Source: a phage
DNA length: 43,091 nt
Strand: one strand, 5' to 3'
Assembly (NCBI GenBank): GCA_021146305.1
Contig: GCA_021146305.1_4336.1
Position numbers and translations under genes: made by a program. Under the pieces are notes generated by a model. The model worked only from the letters and a program-made list of their open reading frames with translations. It did not search any database and was not told the origin of the DNA. Positions 3,428 through 20,274 of the stretch are shown in pieces. Numbering within the stretch: position 1 is the stretch's first letter; each line of letters starts with the position of its first letter.

Positions 3428-5766
3428 TATTTAAACCCCGGCGCATTTCTTGTGGCCTTGCGGGCCTTGCTAATCTTACTGTTACTGTTCTGCAAAGAGG
3501 CAGCCACTTGCTCCTCGATGATGATACGCAAACGGCCTTCATCATCTTGCTCAGTGGATACGTTGCCGATTTGAGAACTCGTGTTGTTTACGATAGTAAC
3601 ATTAGACGGTCCGGAAGAAGACCCGTTTTGCCCCATAATTTCTTTCATCTGCTGTGCGGTGCGTACACGTGACGCACCAGCGGGCATGATAACTTCCGGT
3701 TTACCGCGTTCGGCGATGGTTGAAGCCTGCCCCGCGGATAACTGTCCGCCCTGTTCACGTGCGGACCTGATAGCGGAAATCTGCGCCATACCCGCCCCAA
3801 CGGCAGCGGCGGCAGCTACAGGAGCCAGGAATGGGCCAACTACAGGGATAGCCGCCGTGGACTTGTACGCCTCGATAGCCGCGGTGTAAGTGGCTATGGT
3901 GGCCTGTACGATAGCGAATGCCTTATACGCACCAGAGGCCTCGCCCAACGCAGACCCGATGTTTGAGGCCATGTTACCGAAGGCGGTTGCCGTTGCGTCG
4001 GCACGCTTGGTTGCGTATTGCTCATTGATGGCGTTAAGCGCGGCCTGATACTGCTTCTCACTAATAAGACCCTGCTCACGGTACTTATCGGCTACCGCCA
4101 GTTTCTGCTGTTCCTGGATGTCGAGAAGCTCAAGCTCAGTAGCGTTCTGGCCCATAATCTGAGCCATGAAGTCTTCACCTTTCTGGTTCTTTTCCTGCCG
4201 TTCTTTCTCTCGTTTAGCGAGTTCCTCCTGGCGAGCAGTGTCCGCTTCCAGCATAATCTGCGTCTTGGCGTTTTCGTACTGCTGGTCGCTAAGAAGCTGA
4301 TTGCCGTAAAACTCCTGTAGCTTGGTTAACTGCTGTTCCTGGTTGGCTTCTATTTTCTGGAATACGTCATCATTGAGATGAATTGACTGATAGTAGAAAT
4401 CCTCCGCGGCTTTCTTCTGGCGCTCGAACGCATCCGCTGCTTTCTTAGCGGCTTTTGCACCCGCGCTATCATCTTCAGATCCGCCGCCGGTACCAGTTAC
4501 CTTAAATTTACTAAGCCCTTCTTCCTTAGCGGCTTCTTTGTCGATGTCATACGCTGCGCGTTTAAGCGCGACGATATTTTGCTGAGCCTCCACCTGTTCG
4601 CGGAAACTTTTACGTGTCAGGTCCGCAACGTCGCGCTGAGTATCCAGTGCCATCCCCAGCTGGAAGTTAATATTTTTTGCTACGTCTACGGATTCCCCTG
4701 GTGTGAAGGCGGCCTTAACCAGCCGACCGGCATCCTGCGCCCCTTTAACCATATCCTCAAAGAAGCGCTCCATCGCGGTAAATTCTTCCGCGATGAAATC
4801 GAGCGCATCGGCGGCTGATTCCGCTATGGTTGTCGCCGTTTGTTCGCCGCTATCCGTGATACTTTTGCTACTAAAATCCCAAAGCTCATTTAGCCCGTTT
4901 ATCGCATCACCCACGAAACCAAATGCCGCGTCGAATGACATCTCTATTGCGCTTCCTACTTCCGACGCGATGTCACCCCACATACGCATCTCTGCGGCAA
5001 GTTCACCGGACGCAACCTGTGCGTTAAGTTCCTGGATTAAATCATCGATGTATCGGATAGGTTCGGCGAGCGCACCAACATCAAGACTGGTAGCCAGCGT
5101 CATTTTTAACTGCGACCATGAGTCGCTGGCACTGGCGATGGCCCCGTTAAGTGTGTTGGCCTGGTCCGCCATAGCCCCCGCGAAGTTTACGTTACCGATG
5201 TTGAGCAGGTATTGCTCGATGTCGGCAGCGCTCTTCTTAACTACCGTAGTAGTACCCTGGAATGTAAATTCAACATCGTTTTTGTTCTGTTTGGCCTTGA
5301 TACCAAATTCTTTAAGGCGCTCAAATTCAAAAGTACTAGCGTCTGCAACCGCCTCAATCATCTGATTCAGGTCTTTACCCATAGCAGCGGCGGTGTTTCC
5401 GTAGGAACGCAACGCTTCTTCTGACGGTGTAAGACCAAGCGCCACAAGTTTACGGAATCCCTCTACCGCCTGTTCAAGGCCATACGGAGTGTCGCGCGCG
5501 AAGTCTTGCAGGATGCTTAACGCCTGTCTTGCACCCTGCGTGCTTCCGGTTAGTGTTTTCAGGCTGGCGGACATCTTGTCCAGTTGCCGATGGGATTCTA
5601 CCAGTTCCTGTGCGGCCTTGTAAGCGGTAGCGGCGACGATGGAAGCGAGGCCCGCTACCGCAGCTCCGGCTACCTTTGCAGACTTGGAAAGGTTATCAAG
5701 ACGGTCTGATGTAGCTTTCGCGCCTTGCTCTGATACTTTTACAACTAAACTAGCTACATCAGCCAT
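3427..5766 (-). CDS. tail tape measure protein
   Basis: 779 aa, Ala/Gln/Glu-rich with extended coiled-coil character; largest gene of the tail block; preceded by two small chaperone-like ORFs and followed by minor tail genes. Confidence 0.85.
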   Translation of the reverse strand: MADVASLVVKVSEQGAKATSDRLDNLSKSAKVAGAAVAGLASIVAATAYKAAQELVESHRQLDKMSASLKTLTGSTQGARQALSILQDFARDTPYGLEQAVEGFRKLVALGLTPSEEALRSYGNTAAAMGKDLNQMIEAVADASTFEFERLKEFGIKAKQNKNDVEFTFQGTTTVVKKSAADIEQYLLNIGNVNFAGAMADQANTLNGAIASASDSWSQLKMTLATSLDVGALAEPIRYIDDLIQELNAQVASGELAAEMRMWGDIASEVGSAIEMSFDAAFGFVGDAINGLNELWDFSSKSITDSGEQTATTIAESAADALDFIAEEFTAMERFFEDMVKGAQDAGRLVKAAFTPGESVDVAKNINFQLGMALDTQRDVADLTRKSFREQVEAQQNIVALKRAAYDIDKEAAKEEGLSKFKVTGTGGGSEDDSAGAKAAKKAADAFERQKKAAEDFYYQSIHLNDDVFQKIEANQEQQLTKLQEFYGNQLLSDQQYENAKTQIMLEADTARQEELAKREKERQEKNQKGEDFMAQIMGQNATELELLDIQEQQKLAVADKYREQGLISEKQYQAALNAINEQYATKRADATATAFGNMASNIGSALGEASGAYKAFAIVQATIATYTAAIEAYKSTAAIPVVGPFLAPVAAAAAVGAGMAQISAIRSAREQGGQLSAGQASTIAERGKPEVIMPAGASRVRTAQQMKEIMGQNGSSSGPSNVTIVNNTSSQIGNVSTEQDDEGRLRIIIEEQVAASLQNSNSKISKARKATRNAPGFK

Positions 5767-6647: not shown

Positions 6648-6676
6648 TTGCACACCCCAATATAATAGTGTACTAT
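6648..6676 (+). promoter_or_regulatory. sigma70-like promoter with operator palindrome
   Basis: TTGCAC (6648-6653), 17-bp spacer, TACTAT (6671-6676); palindrome TAATAG-tgta-CTATTC (6663-6678) overlaps the -10; about 40 bp upstream of ATG 6718. Confidence 0.55.
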
Positions 6677-15671: not shown

Positions 15672-15826
15672 CAATAGAGTATGGCCCTTCCGAACGCGTC
15701 AGCGTAACTACACTCAGGACTTACGTCCCGCTCCGTTACCTGCCCGCGCCGCGGTCGCTTGTTCATACTTCACAAGCTCAGGTGGAGCTTAGCACATTTT
15801 TAGTGAAAAGTCAACTATTCGAATAG
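15672..15826 (-). promoter_or_regulatory. conserved promoter + structured leader module, copy 1
   Basis: Leftward promoter TTGACT (plus coords 15809-15814), 17-bp spacer, TAAGCT (15786-15791), with palindrome CTATTC-GAATAG (15815-15826) just upstream; about 110-bp conserved leader 15672-15778 shared with copy 2, including stem ggac-ttac-gtcc (15717-15728). Confidence 0.55.
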
Positions 15827-15936: not shown

Positions 15937-16038
15937 ATGTTAGTCGTTATTTCAGTAGTAATTGCAGTTGATGCGGTGATGTTTCTTTGGGCTTGTAGCG
16001 GTATTGGTGACATTGACACGGGTAATGGTGAACTATGA
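15937..16038 (+). CDS. micro-peptide, hydrophobic
   Basis: 33 aa (MLVVISVVIAVDAVMFLWACSGIGDIDTGNGEL); GGGGAGG RBS; stop overlaps the start of the next gene (ATGA). Confidence 0.4.
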   Translation: MLVVISVVIAVDAVMFLWACSGIGDIDTGNGEL

Positions 16039-16379
16039 AATATATTAAATTAGCAGTAGCAGGTGTTGTAGCCGTTTGTTTGAGTGGTTGCGTAAGGTCG
16101 TTGCCAGACCCGGCTTTACAGGTTTATCAGGCAGGGGATACAACGGCAACATGTAATCAGTTACTATCGAGAATCGCCACGACAAAACAAGCTCAAGCCA
16201 ACGCTACGCACCGTGTTAATAAGCAAATAGGTACTAACGTTGTACTCGGTGTTACAGGCGCATTCCTGATTGTTCCGCTGTTCTTTATGGACACGGGCGC
16301 CGGGCCTTCTATGGACGAGATGACAGCCGGTAATCGTCTGTCGCAGTTACAACAAACATACGACGAGAAATGCAAATGA
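16035..16379 (+). CDS. lipoprotein with internal hydrophobic segment
   Basis: 114 aa; signal peptide ending in lipobox LSGC; later hydrophobic stretch VVLGVTGAFLIVPLFF. Confidence 0.6.
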   Translation: MKYIKLAVAGVVAVCLSGCVRSLPDPALQVYQAGDTTATCNQLLSRIATTKQAQANATHRVNKQIGTNVVLGVTGAFLIVPLFFMDTGAGPSMDEMTAGNRLSQLQQTYDEKCK

Positions 16380-16451: not shown

Positions 16452-16474
16452 AAAGCCCCGTAAGGGGCCTTTTA
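16452..16474. terminator. bidirectional intrinsic terminator
   Basis: GCCCC-gtaa-GGGGC hairpin with A-run upstream and T-run downstream; closes the plus-strand island and the convergent gene 16475-16936. Confidence 0.6.
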
Positions 16475-16936
16475 TCATTCTGGCTTAGTAACCTTCGCCG
16501 CTTTGCTTACCGCCTCTACTCCATCGGCATCAGTAACTTTAACGAAGTATTCGCCGACCGCATTAACCGTCAGAGACAGAGCCTCCTCAGGCGCATTCAC
16601 CACTTCCTTACCGTCTTTGTACCAGGTCAGAGAATACGGCGCTTTGCCTGCCTTAACCTCGACAGTGATGGTTGCGCTGCCGCCCGCCAGTTCAGCGTCC
16701 TGCGGTTGCGCAGAGAAATACACGTCGCCAGCGTCCGCCAGATACGGAATTTCATAAAGCATACCTGCGGCGGGCAACGCAATACCGGTTTTATCTGCAA
16801 ACGGCATATCATCTACCGGTGTACCGAGTACACTTTCGTCCCCAATAAATACCACGTTCTCGCCAGAGCCAGACACGCGGGCGTACTGGACTACGCGACG
16901 AGACGGTACGTCAGTTACTTTGAAAAAGCCCATCAT
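16475..16936 (-). CDS. Ig-like domain protein (head or neck associated)
   Basis: 153 aa; C-terminal segment ATITVEVKAGKAPYSLTWYKDGKEV...GEYFVKVTD is Ig-like and similar in pattern to 12827-13168. Confidence 0.5.
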   Translation of the reverse strand: MMGFFKVTDVPSRRVVQYARVSGSGENVVFIGDESVLGTPVDDMPFADKTGIALPAAGMLYEIPYLADAGDVYFSAQPQDAELAGGSATITVEVKAGKAPYSLTWYKDGKEVVNAPEEALSLTVNAVGEYFVKVTDADGVEAVSKAAKVTKPE

Positions 16937-17979
16937 TATTCCCCTTTCAGATAATCAGCAACACGTTTATCGAGTTCCGCCATCTGCTTAAGCGTGAGCG
17001 GATTCCCGAAACCATCTACAGATATTACGCGAAACTCTTCCGGCGATATACCGCTGTTACGGAAAATCTTACCTCGCACCGGGCCGAGCGCCTGGTCCTG
17101 AAACCACGCCGGTTGTTGTTTAAGGAACTCGTAGTAAGTGGTGTCTGCGCTTACCTGAGTACCTCCGTCCGCACCCTTAGCCGCGCGTTTTGCGCCTTTA
17201 TCAAGGAAGTCGAACTCTGAACTGATTACCGGTGCAGTGGTACTTCGGCAATTAGGATGGGCTGGTGGCATCGGACCTTTACCGATTTCCCACGTCATTC
17301 CGTCTCTGGCCCTGCAAATCGTGCTGGTACGGCTGTCCAGCGTCGACACCCACTCGTATTTCTCGATGATGTCGTCGTTCTGGCGGTACGTCTCGTTACG
17401 GGCCTCGTTGGATACGTGTGACAGCGCGGTGCGGATTACCGTAGTCGCGTTACGTTCTGAGATGTCGGCTAGTCCACCAGCGCCAACAACATTCTTAACA
17501 ATCTGCCGTGTGGTTTGACCTTGCACAAAGCCCATCTTAACTCCAGTTACAAGACGTGCTACTTCCGTTTCGCCCCATCCAGACATCAGCTTGGTGAAAT
17601 CAACGGGCTTGTCGCTCAATGATAATGGTTGAAACTCGGCAGCGGCCCATACCTGCTCAGCGGTAGGCGTAACAAATTCCGCGTCTACGTTGGCGGTCAG
17701 TGTCTTTACGTTCCACTCAGCCTCATACGCGGCCAGTTCCTTAAGGTCTTCTGTCAGCTTTGTTTGCCAGTCACCGGTAAGGCCTGCCAGTGCTTCTTCG
17801 AGGTCGCGTAACAGTTTATTCAGCCGTGCGGTGCTACGCCCGTCGTCACCGAATAACAACACCTGCCGTTTGATTTCATCACGCATCTCCTGAATGAACG
17901 GTGTGAGGCCTTTCACTTCACCGGATGCGGTGCGTTGCAGCCATATCTGGTGGCTGATTAGAGATGTAAGTAAGCTCAT
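16936..17979 (-). CDS. head morphogenesis protein (minor head, Mu F / SPP1 gp7-like position)
   Basis: 347 aa immediately downstream of the portal gene with 1-nt coupling to the next gene. Confidence 0.6.
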   Translation of the reverse strand: MSLLTSLISHQIWLQRTASGEVKGLTPFIQEMRDEIKRQVLLFGDDGRSTARLNKLLRDLEEALAGLTGDWQTKLTEDLKELAAYEAEWNVKTLTANVDAEFVTPTAEQVWAAAEFQPLSLSDKPVDFTKLMSGWGETEVARLVTGVKMGFVQGQTTRQIVKNVVGAGGLADISERNATTVIRTALSHVSNEARNETYRQNDDIIEKYEWVSTLDSRTSTICRARDGMTWEIGKGPMPPAHPNCRSTTAPVISSEFDFLDKGAKRAAKGADGGTQVSADTTYYEFLKQQPAWFQDQALGPVRGKIFRNSGISPEEFRVISVDGFGNPLTLKQMAELDKRVADYLKGE

Positions 17980-18060
17980 ATACCCTCCTGTTTCGATATG
18001 ACAATCATATCAGTCGGTAACGTATTGGCATAATCATACGCATTTAAGGTTAAAAAGAGC

Positions 18061-18092
18061 TTGATTAAATTCTACATTCAAATGTAGAATTT
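18061..18092 (+). promoter_or_regulatory. promoter overlapped by a perfect 12-bp inverted repeat
   Basis: TTGATT (18061-18066), spacer, extended -10 TGTAGAAT (18083-18090); inverted repeat AAATTCTACATT-ca-AATGTAGAATTT (18067-18092). Confidence 0.55.
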
Positions 18093-18121
18093 AAACGTAC
18101 ACTTAAACAGGAGAAATACAC

Positions 18122-18775
18122 ATGAAACTGCAAACATTAGAGTTCCCTTATGGAGAAATCACTTTTGACCGTGAAAACTTTATTAACGTAAACGAGCTGG
18201 TTGACCAGATGAACCGTTGGCGTTTAGACAACGGCATGGGGGCCAGAGAGCTTCGCCAGGTCATGGCAACGGATGGCTTCAAGATTTTCAAGGAGGAATG
18301 CGAAAAACAACTCGGAATCGAGAATGCCATAAGGGCGACGAAAGGCCGAAACGGTCGCACCTTTGCATGTCTCCATCTGGCAGTATATATTGCTGAGCAA
18401 TACAGCGCCTATTTCCATTTCCTCGTTATCGACCGCTTTATCACGCAACGGCAGGTAGAACTACGAAACATTGGCGCGGTGAGCTTTGTCGAGCTTAACG
18501 CTGCCGTTAGTCGAATGATCGAGCGCACGGAGGGAAGAATTGGCCACAGTGGACACTTCATACAGGTGGCTAAAGCGGTAAAGGAATCCGTAGATATCCG
18601 CGACGTAACGGGTTTCGATACATGGGACTCTCAGGATGCGAAGACCAATCAGTTGCGAAGTGACATCCAGAAAGCTCTGGTGACGCTTCTTGACATGGAG
18701 GCCGTTAATACATGGGGTGAACTGAAAGAGGCGATACCTCGGGTTGTGCGTAAATGTGCGGCTAATATACGTTAA
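18122..18775 (+). CDS. KilA-N domain protein
   Basis: 217 aa; N-terminal ~100 aa fit the KilA-N pattern (GRNGRTFACLHLAVYIAEQYSAYFHFLV); AGGAGA RBS; plus-strand gene inside a minus-strand structural block. Confidence 0.55.
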   Translation: MKLQTLEFPYGEITFDRENFINVNELVDQMNRWRLDNGMGARELRQVMATDGFKIFKEECEKQLGIENAIRATKGRNGRTFACLHLAVYIAEQYSAYFHFLVIDRFITQRQVELRNIGAVSFVELNAAVSRMIERTEGRIGHSGHFIQVAKAVKESVDIRDVTGFDTWDSQDAKTNQLRSDIQKALVTLLDMEAVNTWGELKEAIPRVVRKCAANIR

Positions 18776-18776
18776 A

Positions 18777-18803
18777 ACTAAGGCCCCTAGCGGGGCCTTT
18801 CTA
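18777..18803. terminator. bidirectional intrinsic terminator
   Basis: AGGCCCC-tagc-GGGGCCT hairpin (18781-18798) flanked by A-run and T-run. Confidence 0.7.
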
Positions 18804-18804
18804 T

Positions 18805-20274
18805 TTACTCCTGTTGTTGCGCGGACTGCGGAATTTCTCCTGCTACCTGAGCAACCGCACCCAACGGCAGCGGTGCGTCCCCAATAGCGTTCTGAATGTC
18901 CTCATCGGTCCAGTCGGTTACGCCAGCCTTACGCAACGCGGCGTAGTAAGCAGTAGCTGGTAGCAGGCCTGCGTTAATGTCCGCCATCCACTGAGTGCGG
19001 TCCTGAGCTGTCATCGGTTGCAGGAAGAACTCCATGTTCAGCTTGAATTCAATCTCTGTGTCTTCGCGCAACCCTAGCATCGCCGCTACCCAGCGCAATG
19101 CATCGGTATACGCCATACTTACGTTACGTGCGATTGTCGCCATAACAGACGTATCCGCGCCACGTTGCAGGCGGGCGGATTCGGCGGTGATTTGCTGCGT
19201 CGGGGTGATAAGCTGCGCACCAATCTGAATGGCCTGATTCTCTTTATCCAGCATATTCTGTTTGGCGAGGTTGTTCTCTCCTGCCTGAACAAGAAATGCA
19301 TTGCCGCCGTAACCGATGTTATGGCCCGAACGCGACCCCATGCGCACGCCGTGAGGGTTGGCTTCTTTCCACTGTTCCATGCTCATGTTCTCGCCAGGGG
19401 CGATGAACAGAGTAGGCTGGCCTACAACGAAGCTGGATTCCTCGTTGTCCGCGCTGTTGCGGAAATGCCCGATATTAAGCTCAGCTAACGGCAGCAAAGG
19501 TGCATCATCAATGGTCACATCGTTGTTGCTTGCCCCAATGAACGTGAACGGGATTTTGCCCCGTAACTGTTCGCCAAGTTCCGGGAATATTTCGATTACA
19601 TCATCCTGAGCGCCACCTTCGGCATCGAAGCGATAGATTCGCTGGCGGTAGCGCCCGTCAATCAAATCGAGAACGCGGTATTGTTCACCGAACTTTGTTT
19701 CGAACTCTGCACTTGGTTCTGAGTATTCCCACACCTCACGTAACACGACCATCGTCACACGGTTCACTGAGCCGATGCGGGTCAGTCGCCAGTTGATGAT
19801 GTTCTCAGCAGTGTAGAATGCAATGACCGGGTTTAGTAACCCCGCGTTCTGTTCGGCTGCCGTCGCCGCGGCTGTCTCCGGGGCGTCCACCAGCAACCCG
19901 CCACGGCCTATCGAGTTAAGCTCCATCAGCGTATCCTGCGCGTGCTGCCACAGCCCGACACCTGAACCGTCAGCGTTGTGCAACAGGTACTCAAGTTCAG
20001 GCGGGATAATCTGCTCAGGGTCTTTGCGCATCACTGACCCCGTCATCCCCACCAGCGTGCGTTTGGTGAAATTGTAGCAGATAGCGCCGTTCTCGTATTC
20101 TTCCTGTCGCTGTGCTGCGTAGGTCTGGTCAGGCTCGTTCTTCCCGACGTTGCGCAGATAGCGGATAAGGTCGCCTTCAAGAGCGTGGCGTACCTTCTGC
20201 CATTTATCGAAGTGATGCAGCCATTCCCGGTGTTTTGTCTTAACACCCTGATTCTGACCGTTCATAGTTAACAT
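18805..20274 (-). CDS. portal protein
   Basis: 489 aa; immediately downstream of the terminase large subunit and upstream of the head morphogenesis gene. Confidence 0.75.
   Translation of the reverse strand: MLTMNGQNQGVKTKHREWLHHFDKWQKVRHALEGDLIRYLRNVGKNEPDQTYAAQRQEEYENGAICYNFTKRTLVGMTGSVMRKDPEQIIPPELEYLLHNADGSGVGLWQHAQDTLMELNSIGRGGLLVDAPETAAATAAEQNAGLLNPVIAFYTAENIINWRLTRIGSVNRVTMVVLREVWEYSEPSAEFETKFGEQYRVLDLIDGRYRQRIYRFDAEGGAQDDVIEIFPELGEQLRGKIPFTFIGASNNDVTIDDAPLLPLAELNIGHFRNSADNEESSFVVGQPTLFIAPGENMSMEQWKEANPHGVRMGSRSGHNIGYGGNAFLVQAGENNLAKQNMLDKENQAIQIGAQLITPTQQITAESARLQRGADTSVMATIARNVSMAYTDALRWVAAMLGLREDTEIEFKLNMEFFLQPMTAQDRTQWMADINAGLLPATAYYAALRKAGVTDWTDEDIQNAIGDAPLPLGAVAQVAGEIPQSAQQQE

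Follow-up and report, generated by a model that had tools for sequence, protein, structure and literature searches.

A KilA-N subfamily of Guernseyvirinae phages and the palindrome matched to it at its own promoter

Between the portal and head-morphogenesis genes of a Guernseyvirinae phage lies a gene that is read against both of its neighbours, from a promoter that is overlapped by a perfect palindrome. Here we ask what protein this gene encodes and what the palindrome is for. The window, i.e. the entire stretch of 43,091 nt that was analysed, belongs to a siphophage of the Jersey/K1G-like group (Guernseyvirinae). Over the 1-kb region studied here, identity is 97% to Escherichia phage EcoPhCCP1 and about 83% to Salmonella Jersey-type phages. 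The initial annotation had placed a KilA-N gene in opposite orientation between the portal and head-morphogenesis genes and this is correct, both neighbours being encoded on the minus strand. The genes, the parts of the gene under study and its downstream hairpin are as follows.

16936-17979, minus strand: Phage_Mu_F head-morphogenesis gene, head-to-head with the gene under study
18109-18113, plus strand: Shine-Dalgarno sequence AGGAG, 8 nt 5' of the ATG, read from the sequence and conserved in relatives
18122-18775, plus strand: gene under study, ORF of 217 aa with ATG at 18122 and TAA at 18773-18775
18122-18238, plus strand: codons 1-39, conserved KilA-N start (beta-hairpin and first helix)
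18239-18370, plus strand: codons 40-83, hypervariable allele cassette, predicted DNA-reading part (helix A, helix B and wing)
18371-18772, plus strand: codons 84-217, last KilA-N helix and a family-specific, all-helical C-terminal domain
18780-18799, no strand assigned: G+C-rich hairpin AAGGCCCC-TAGC-GGGGCCTT between the two converging stop codons, from a terminator scan
18805-20274, minus strand: DUF4055 portal gene, tail-to-tail with the gene under study

The gene belongs to a KilA-N subfamily that is as yet uncharacterised and has a palindrome matched to it at the promoter; searches of the literature for this gene, for Jerseyvirus transcriptomes and for KilA-N in Jerseyvirus returned nothing relevant. 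A KilA-N-like N-terminal domain had been proposed earlier, and a domain search does find the similarity, although with 20.4 bits (E = 4.6e-4) the protein itself falls short of the Pfam KilA-N (PF04383) gathering score, which is 23.8. That the N-terminal half is a KilA-N/APSES-type winged-helix domain, predicted to bind DNA, was confirmed indirectly, by the Pfam matches of relatives, a fold model and matches in BFVD. An exhaustive profile search yielded 142 distant relatives, which in alignment show approximately 25-30% identity and mostly share the length and the two-domain layout of the protein. KilA-N is matched by 35 of 51 distant full-length relatives as well as by all ten further ones, with E-values down to 7e-18, and many of the matches among the full-length relatives exceed the gathering score; for relatives from the second search the PF04383 matches were precomputed. 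A few distant relatives have an N-terminal nuclease head (GIY-YIG, T5orf172 or MUG113), and the window protein lacks both RING and nuclease domains. The AF2 model, made with the distant relatives in the alignment, has a pLDDT of 87.4 and consists of a winged helix and a helical bundle. The protein shows the APSES-type succession of beta-hairpin, three helices and beta-hairpin wing, and its BFVD matches are KilA-N proteins from phages and poxviruses. The segment of codons 40-83 aligns to helix A, helix B and the wing of Mbp1; in the PCG2-DNA structure it is helix A, helix B and the wing that contact DNA (PMC4333399). Within the wing the tip, RGRNG, is conserved, with variable residues on either side of it.

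The C-terminal half, which had been left unassigned, stays so, and no named family corresponds to it. The domain always accompanies this KilA-N subfamily and never appears without KilA-N. It has conserved motifs with four invariant residues (R115, N126, W168 and R179) and probably serves dimerisation or contact with a partner. Neither the protein nor 61 relatives gave a Pfam match to an ANT, KilAC or Bro-N domain, and without ANT or KilAC the earlier qualification of the protein as antirepressor-like finds no support. Outside codons 40-83 the protein is under purifying selection (dN/dS 0.01-0.16, with about 0.01 in codons 1-39 for promoter types A vs B, described below), and codons 84-217 are nearly invariant within Guernseyvirinae.

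Judging from the genomes compared, the portal/Mu-F junction is a variable slot and the cassette in it is optional. By means of tblastn the gene was found in 342 phage records, 335 from Salmonella and only three from Escherichia. Portals at least 95% identical to that of the window are found in 79 records, which, among the matches listed, are E. coli phages or Kagunavirus. In Bas75, with a portal that is 97.5% identical, the slot is empty and the portal and Mu-F genes are adjacent (L036 3250-3380); in UTEC10 it holds two unrelated opposite-strand ORFs, on the minus strand (L037 3426-3909). A GGCCCC hairpin is found 3' of the portal gene in the window, in Bas75 (no insert) and in UTEC10 (a different insert). 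Since it is present behind the portal gene in relatives that lack the gene, the hairpin at 18780-18799 is part of the backbone and not of the cassette. It is shared with the portal gene and passed the terminator scan on the plus strand only, so that the gene cannot be said to be isolated by a bidirectional terminator of its own, as had been thought. The 5' part of the cassette has a lower G+C content (0.40 vs 0.52-0.57), and distant relatives also occur in phage contigs, often as inserts within structural modules. The gene resembles a moron in that it has its own promoter and a terminator, lies between conserved genes and is missing from close relatives.

Three further loci may be mentioned here. 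The head module of the window contains a second opposite-strand insert, a 114-aa ORF with a lipoprotein-type start (MKYIKLAVAGVVAVCLSGC) at 16035-16379 on the plus strand, and the hairpin 3' of it (16452-16471) was positive in the terminator scan on both strands. Jersey additionally has a homing endonuclease between portal and terminase (L001 5508-6887). An unrelated metagenomic phage contig, L024, carries two KilA-N genes (4272-5018 and 143-766), one of which adjoins a Phage_Mu_F gene near an opposite-strand portal gene, echoing the layout of the window.

The elements between the two divergent genes were located as follows.

18004-18031, minus strand: divergent promoter-like site ATGCCA-16-TATGAT with TG, 5' of the head-morphogenesis gene, from a consensus scan
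18061-18066, plus strand: -35 hexamer TTGATT of a sigma-70-type promoter, from a consensus scan
18065-18094, no strand assigned: perfect palindrome TTAAATTCTACATT-CA-AATGTAGAATTTAA (type A), putative operator, covering the promoter spacer and the -10
18085-18090, plus strand: -10 hexamer TAGAAT, within the right arm of the palindrome, from a consensus scan

The consensus scan recovered the promoter starting with TTGATT that had been described, in the form of a sigma-70-like TTGATT-18-TAGAAT with a spacer of 18, and it is indeed overlapped by the dyad; TGTAGAAT is not a proper extended -10, for its TG abuts the hexamer. The inverted repeat, initially given as perfect over 12 bp, is real and in fact longer. 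Its arms (18065-18078 and 18081-18094) are 14 nt each, 100% complementary and separated by a 2-nt centre, and form the longest perfect inverted repeat of the window. This is far beyond chance, as none of 100 first-order shuffles gave an arm longer than 11. At 0-1 mismatches the window contains no other copies of the 12-mer half-site, and with no further copies of the dyad in the window the idea of a regulon site was dropped. As stated before, the palindrome differs from the sites of the GAATAG-N4-CTATTC family used by other promoters of the window. Known RNA elements came nowhere near any Rfam threshold on either strand of 17800-18950, and, by eye, the palindrome could not be fitted to the consensus boxes of the host factors LexA, CRP, Fur, FNR or ArgR. 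The divergent site at 18004-18031 recurs in Jersey-type relatives, which have a stretch containing TGaTATGAT there, as read from the alignment.

Promoters were compared over about 38 informative related loci, to which a metagenome scan contributed only three. All loci compared have a good sigma-70 promoter at the equivalent position. The -35 hexamer of the relatives, at the same aligned place, is TTGACA, TTGCAA, TTGCAT or TTGACT, and the -10 hexamers are TAGAAT, TACCAT, TAGTAT and TATAAT, where the palindromic types keep TAnnAT and type D has TATAAT. The promoter symmetry comes in five discrete types, with equivalent symmetry elements in all five.

Type A: AAATTCTACATT..AATGTAGAATTT; the window, EcoPhCCP1, Vi II-E1-like phages and others
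Type B: AAATGGTATAT..ATATACCATTT; Jersey, FSL SP-101, SB28, L025-27 and others
Type C: AAATACTAC..GTAGTATTT; L013, L031-33, L057 and L058
Type D: imperfect dyad around the -35, none over the -10; SETP3 and Ent2 type
Type E: outer AGAACTAT palindrome plus direct TACTACA repeats; L034 and L035

Type D is the commonest among the records, and in both type E loci the gene adjoins the small terminase gene. The arm pairs compared were AAATTCTACA..TGTAGAATTT for type A, AAATGGTATA..TATACCATTT for type B and AAATACTAC..GTAGTATTT for type C. The right arm is made up of the -10 hexamer (TAnnAT) plus TT and the left arm mirrors this hexamer including nn (TC/GA, GG/CC, AC/GT). As these free positions are mirrored too, the symmetry has been kept by changes on both arms.

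Some loci have more than one unit. At least 40 Salmonella phages (AG11, SB3 and ER types) have two tandem 61-bp promoter units, type B followed by type A (e.g. L004 2340-2470, of AG11 type, and L049 700-845). The second -35 is a damaged CTCGGT in AG11 and TTGGTT in ER14, and the tandem phages of the AG11 and ER types encode the B-type protein only. In L031-33 a degenerate type A-like unit, together with its Shine-Dalgarno sequence, is situated just upstream of type C. Type A dyads were encountered only beside this gene in IMG/VR, and likewise in the phage collection; in IMG/VR type B dyads also lie beside this gene, apart from two unrelated contigs. A B-like palindrome, AAATGGTATATGGTTATATACCATT, occurs in L043 (2630-2653) and L048 (269-292), 5' of a gene starting with MDNTDIFKGVGVEIELPTQDSFLK that presumably resembles a RegA-like protein; this may be a chance match.

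The protein varies along with the promoter. Residues 40-83 are 36-68% identical between most types (82% for C vs E) and 39 of their 44 columns vary; residues 84-217 are 90-96% identical between types A-D of Guernseyvirinae, which share the same context. In about 38 loci a promoter type is invariably accompanied by one allele of residues 40-50.

Type A: [A/T]RE[L/I]RQVMAT
Type B: FKHLRQLMTT
Type C or E: xKNLSQLLxT
Type D: LQPRNLAQILKT

Most of the roughly 1.9 kb compared in locus L025 shows at least 90% identity to the window. The exceptions are two patches, -108 to -42 (promoter and dyad) and +118 to +278 (codons 40-93), both of which are B-type; only two informative sites lie between the patches and both are window-type. 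Between types dS is saturated in codons 40-83 and amounts to 0.19-0.36 in codons 84-216 (dN/dS 0.05-0.16). Because dS is saturated in a segment with recent flanks, codons 40-83 are to be regarded as old alleles that were moved by recombination, rather than as a relaxed or recently accelerated segment. In-situ positive selection on residues 40-83 is not demonstrable, given the saturated dS. In L034, where the gene has another context and adjoins the small terminase gene, the promoter symmetry has gone with it. Putative operators and recognition segments exist as old, discrete alleles, and phages exchange the two jointly.

This pairing of a palindrome with a predicted DNA-reading segment suggests self-regulation. 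We propose that the protein, as a dimer, represses the promoter of its own gene by binding to the palindrome there, a putative scheme that in our estimate stands an even chance of being right. Host RNA polymerase would read the sigma-70-type promoter, of which the spacer and -10 lie inside the 14+14 palindrome, and a KilA-N protein dimer bound there would occlude both. Such negative autoregulation could hold a dose-sensitive DNA-binding protein at a low level. The cassette would then comprise promoter, operator, ribosome-binding site and gene, with a terminator borrowed from the post-portal hairpin of the backbone. The initial annotation had left the choice between a second, dedicated regulator and autoregulation; the comparative data favour the latter and speak less for the former, because the dyad is unique in the genome, travels with the gene (L034) and is of a type that is always paired with its allele.

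Several points count against autoregulation. The perfect pairing could be a matter of linkage alone, with no more than 60-250 bp between the dyad and codons 40-83, and with only two informative sites between the patches of L025. Autoregulation in its simple form fails to explain the at least 40 B+A phages, which have a second, type A unit and the B-type protein only. Type D has no dyad over the -10, and the -10 hexamer by itself accounts for part of the right arm. Operators seldom need perfect arms of 14 nt; these arms could possibly be kept by template switching.

A palindrome that requires no protein partner is an unlikely alternative, and the one that withstands the data best. The palindrome would be a symmetric, overlapping divergent promoter or a cruciform element, and its pairing with the alleles would be linkage. 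The left arm does put a second TAGAAT on the minus strand, just as the right arm equals -10 plus TT. In L033 (1431-1486) there is a 56-bp palindrome with perfect arms of 24 nt that mirrors the whole promoter, the -35 TTGACT included, and the 24-nt arms of L031 and L032 match at 22 of 24 positions. The centre of the palindrome flips between close relatives (CA/TG, CTAT/ATAG and GTCTGGAT/ATCCAGAC), which is a signature of palindrome dynamics, and as single-stranded DNA the palindrome of the window (18065-18094) has a folding energy of -9.8 kcal/mol (z = -7.3); its arms would in this view be kept identical by hairpin-templated mutation. However, the -35 of a minus-strand promoter in the window would be ACGTTT or CGTTTA, a poor match, and a better, separate minus-strand promoter is available at 18031-18004. 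Moreover, types D and E are without the mirrored -10 and yet keep other symmetry elements, and it would be left unexplained why the divergence of the neighbouring gene is concentrated in its DNA-reading segment.

More doubtful is a role in conflict between phages. BstA of prophage BTP1 (Owen et al. 2021) is an abortive-infection KilA-N protein of 307 aa with a second domain, and the anti-BstA element (aba), which is variant-specific, comprises 29 bp upstream and the first 34 bp of its own gene (PMC8585504), so that there is a KilA-N precedent for a variant-specific DNA element at the start of the protein's own gene. By analogy, the protein would be a weapon against co-infecting or resident phages and its cognate palindrome would confer self-immunity. 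Phages without the cognate palindrome would be attacked, for instance by blocking their DNA replication, and the operator types would be immunity types. Alleles would be maintained by frequency-dependent selection and extra palindromes, as in the B+A phages of the AG11 and ER types, would lead to cross-immunity. Old, discrete alleles, with saturated dS and recent flanks, do fit frequency-dependent selection among competing phages, and the heterotypic dyads without a matching protein (B+A in AG11/ER; the A-like unit of L031-33) could represent acquired cross-immunity. On the other hand, unequal recombination at conserved flanks can yield tandem units that have no function, and a PADLOC hmmscan at E <= 1 gave no BstA, only a weak match to PDC-S22 (E = 0.0023). 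The protein has 217 aa vs the 307 aa of BstA and is found in a virulent-type phage, whereas BstA is prophage-encoded. Furthermore, aba relies on direct CCCGCC repeats and has no palindrome.

Less probable again is that the palindrome serves as operator for a different regulator, which might be a host factor or the product of a phage gene at another place. The phage does seem to encode regulators, since the window has another operator family, GAATAG-N4-CTATTC, with about ten sites. Including the variant with a final A (GAATAG-N4-CTATTC/A), it resembles a set of operators spread over the genome for a different regulator of the phage, with about ten sites in the window at <= 2 mismatches; at <= 3 mismatches there are 22 matches vs 13.8 expected, and only one of 100 shuffles reached 22. 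The 16-mers lie at 6663, 15805, 15896, 23911, 26305, 27209, 31063, 31107, 33656 and 37229, the dyads at 15805 and 15896 being upstream of the 114-aa ORF at 16035-16379, and a similar GAATAG motif lies 5' of the Mu-F gene in UTEC10. The palindrome, however, is a single site in the window and has followed the gene to its other location (L034), its type A form is found in IMG/VR only beside this gene, and L025 swaps dyad type together with recognition segment in a locus that is otherwise window-like. A conserved host factor would, moreover, be ill-fitting with five sequence types.

That the gene encodes a peptidoglycan amidase or a second endolysin, as a match to PHROG 6095 'amidase' (E = 9e-121) and the names 'amidase' or 'endolysin' in many GenBank records would have it, is next to impossible and was ruled out by domain searches (no amidase, CHAP or lysozyme family in Pfam/NCBIfam at E <= 1), by the unrelated fold of winged helix and helical bundle, and by the annotation of EcoPhCCP1 (97% identical), which has a distinct endolysin and two holins in another part of the genome, no signal sequence or transmembrane segment being visible in the sequence either. 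The label is copied by similarity, as is apparent from record notes such as 'amidase [Salmonella phage wksl3]'. It reads 'amidase' for RefSeq Jersey gp05 and 'endolysin' in the ZCSE9 record, and the name 'amidase' has spread to hundreds of genomes with no domain to support it; in UniRef some family members are already called 'KilA-N domain-containing protein'. The correction concerns more than 300 phage genomes, many of them proposed for Salmonella biocontrol, that list an 'amidase' or 'endolysin'.

Beyond this correction, types A-E form a natural specificity series that may be swapped as some 45 residues plus a 30-bp site, and the palindrome would, to our knowledge, be the first DNA site put forward as a candidate cognate of any KilA-N protein from a bacteriophage. 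The old recombining alleles resemble immunity types, which hints at interactions between co-infecting virulent phages; if so, this would link the family to the mechanism of BstA-aba.

How, then, does the gene compare with known systems? The KilA-N domain was reportedly defined by Iyer et al. in 2002. Phage and viral KilA-N proteins include P1 KilA, poxvirus N1R/p28 and T5orf172 fusions, and their association with nucleases is known. The present family is like these in that relatives carry PF04383, some of them behind an N-terminal GIY-YIG, T5orf172 or MUG113 domain, and unlike them in that the C-terminal domain of the window protein is a distinct, unnamed module. The APSES proteins Mbp1, PCG2, Swi4 and Bqt4 are eukaryotic multi-domain factors with ankyrin repeats, which the phage protein is not; their sites are of the ACGCGT type, whereas the palindrome is AT-rich, and they are without the helical C-terminal domain seen here.

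Autoregulated repressor-operator modules are known from lambdoid immunity regions and from the controller C proteins of restriction-modification systems. The locus shares with these a small predicted DNA-binding protein, a promoter of its own with a dyad, and what may be a joint change and swapping of protein and dyad types. It differs from them by its KilA-N fold vs the classic HTH of Cro/cI or Xre type, by its occurrence in a virulent-type phage without lysogeny module and by its single putative operator. The gene occurs in Guernseyvirinae, and the annotation of EcoPhCCP1 has no integrase or repressor and one 'excisionase and transcriptional regulator'.

For the C-terminal domain a structural match was obtained with DdrC of Deinococcus radiodurans (PDB 7qvb), at 15% identity and with no homology implied. 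The authors of the DdrC structure regard the four-helix bundle, which mediates dimerisation in DdrC, as a common motif that does not indicate function (PMC9303277), and we set the match aside as a clue, a helical bundle being generic.

From BstA-aba, finally, the locus differs in the form and position of its DNA element, a promoter palindrome where aba has terminal direct repeats, and there is no sequence match between the proteins by PADLOC. What it may have in common with BstA-aba is a variant-specific stretch of DNA close to the start of the gene, here the upstream palindrome that is paired with the protein allele.
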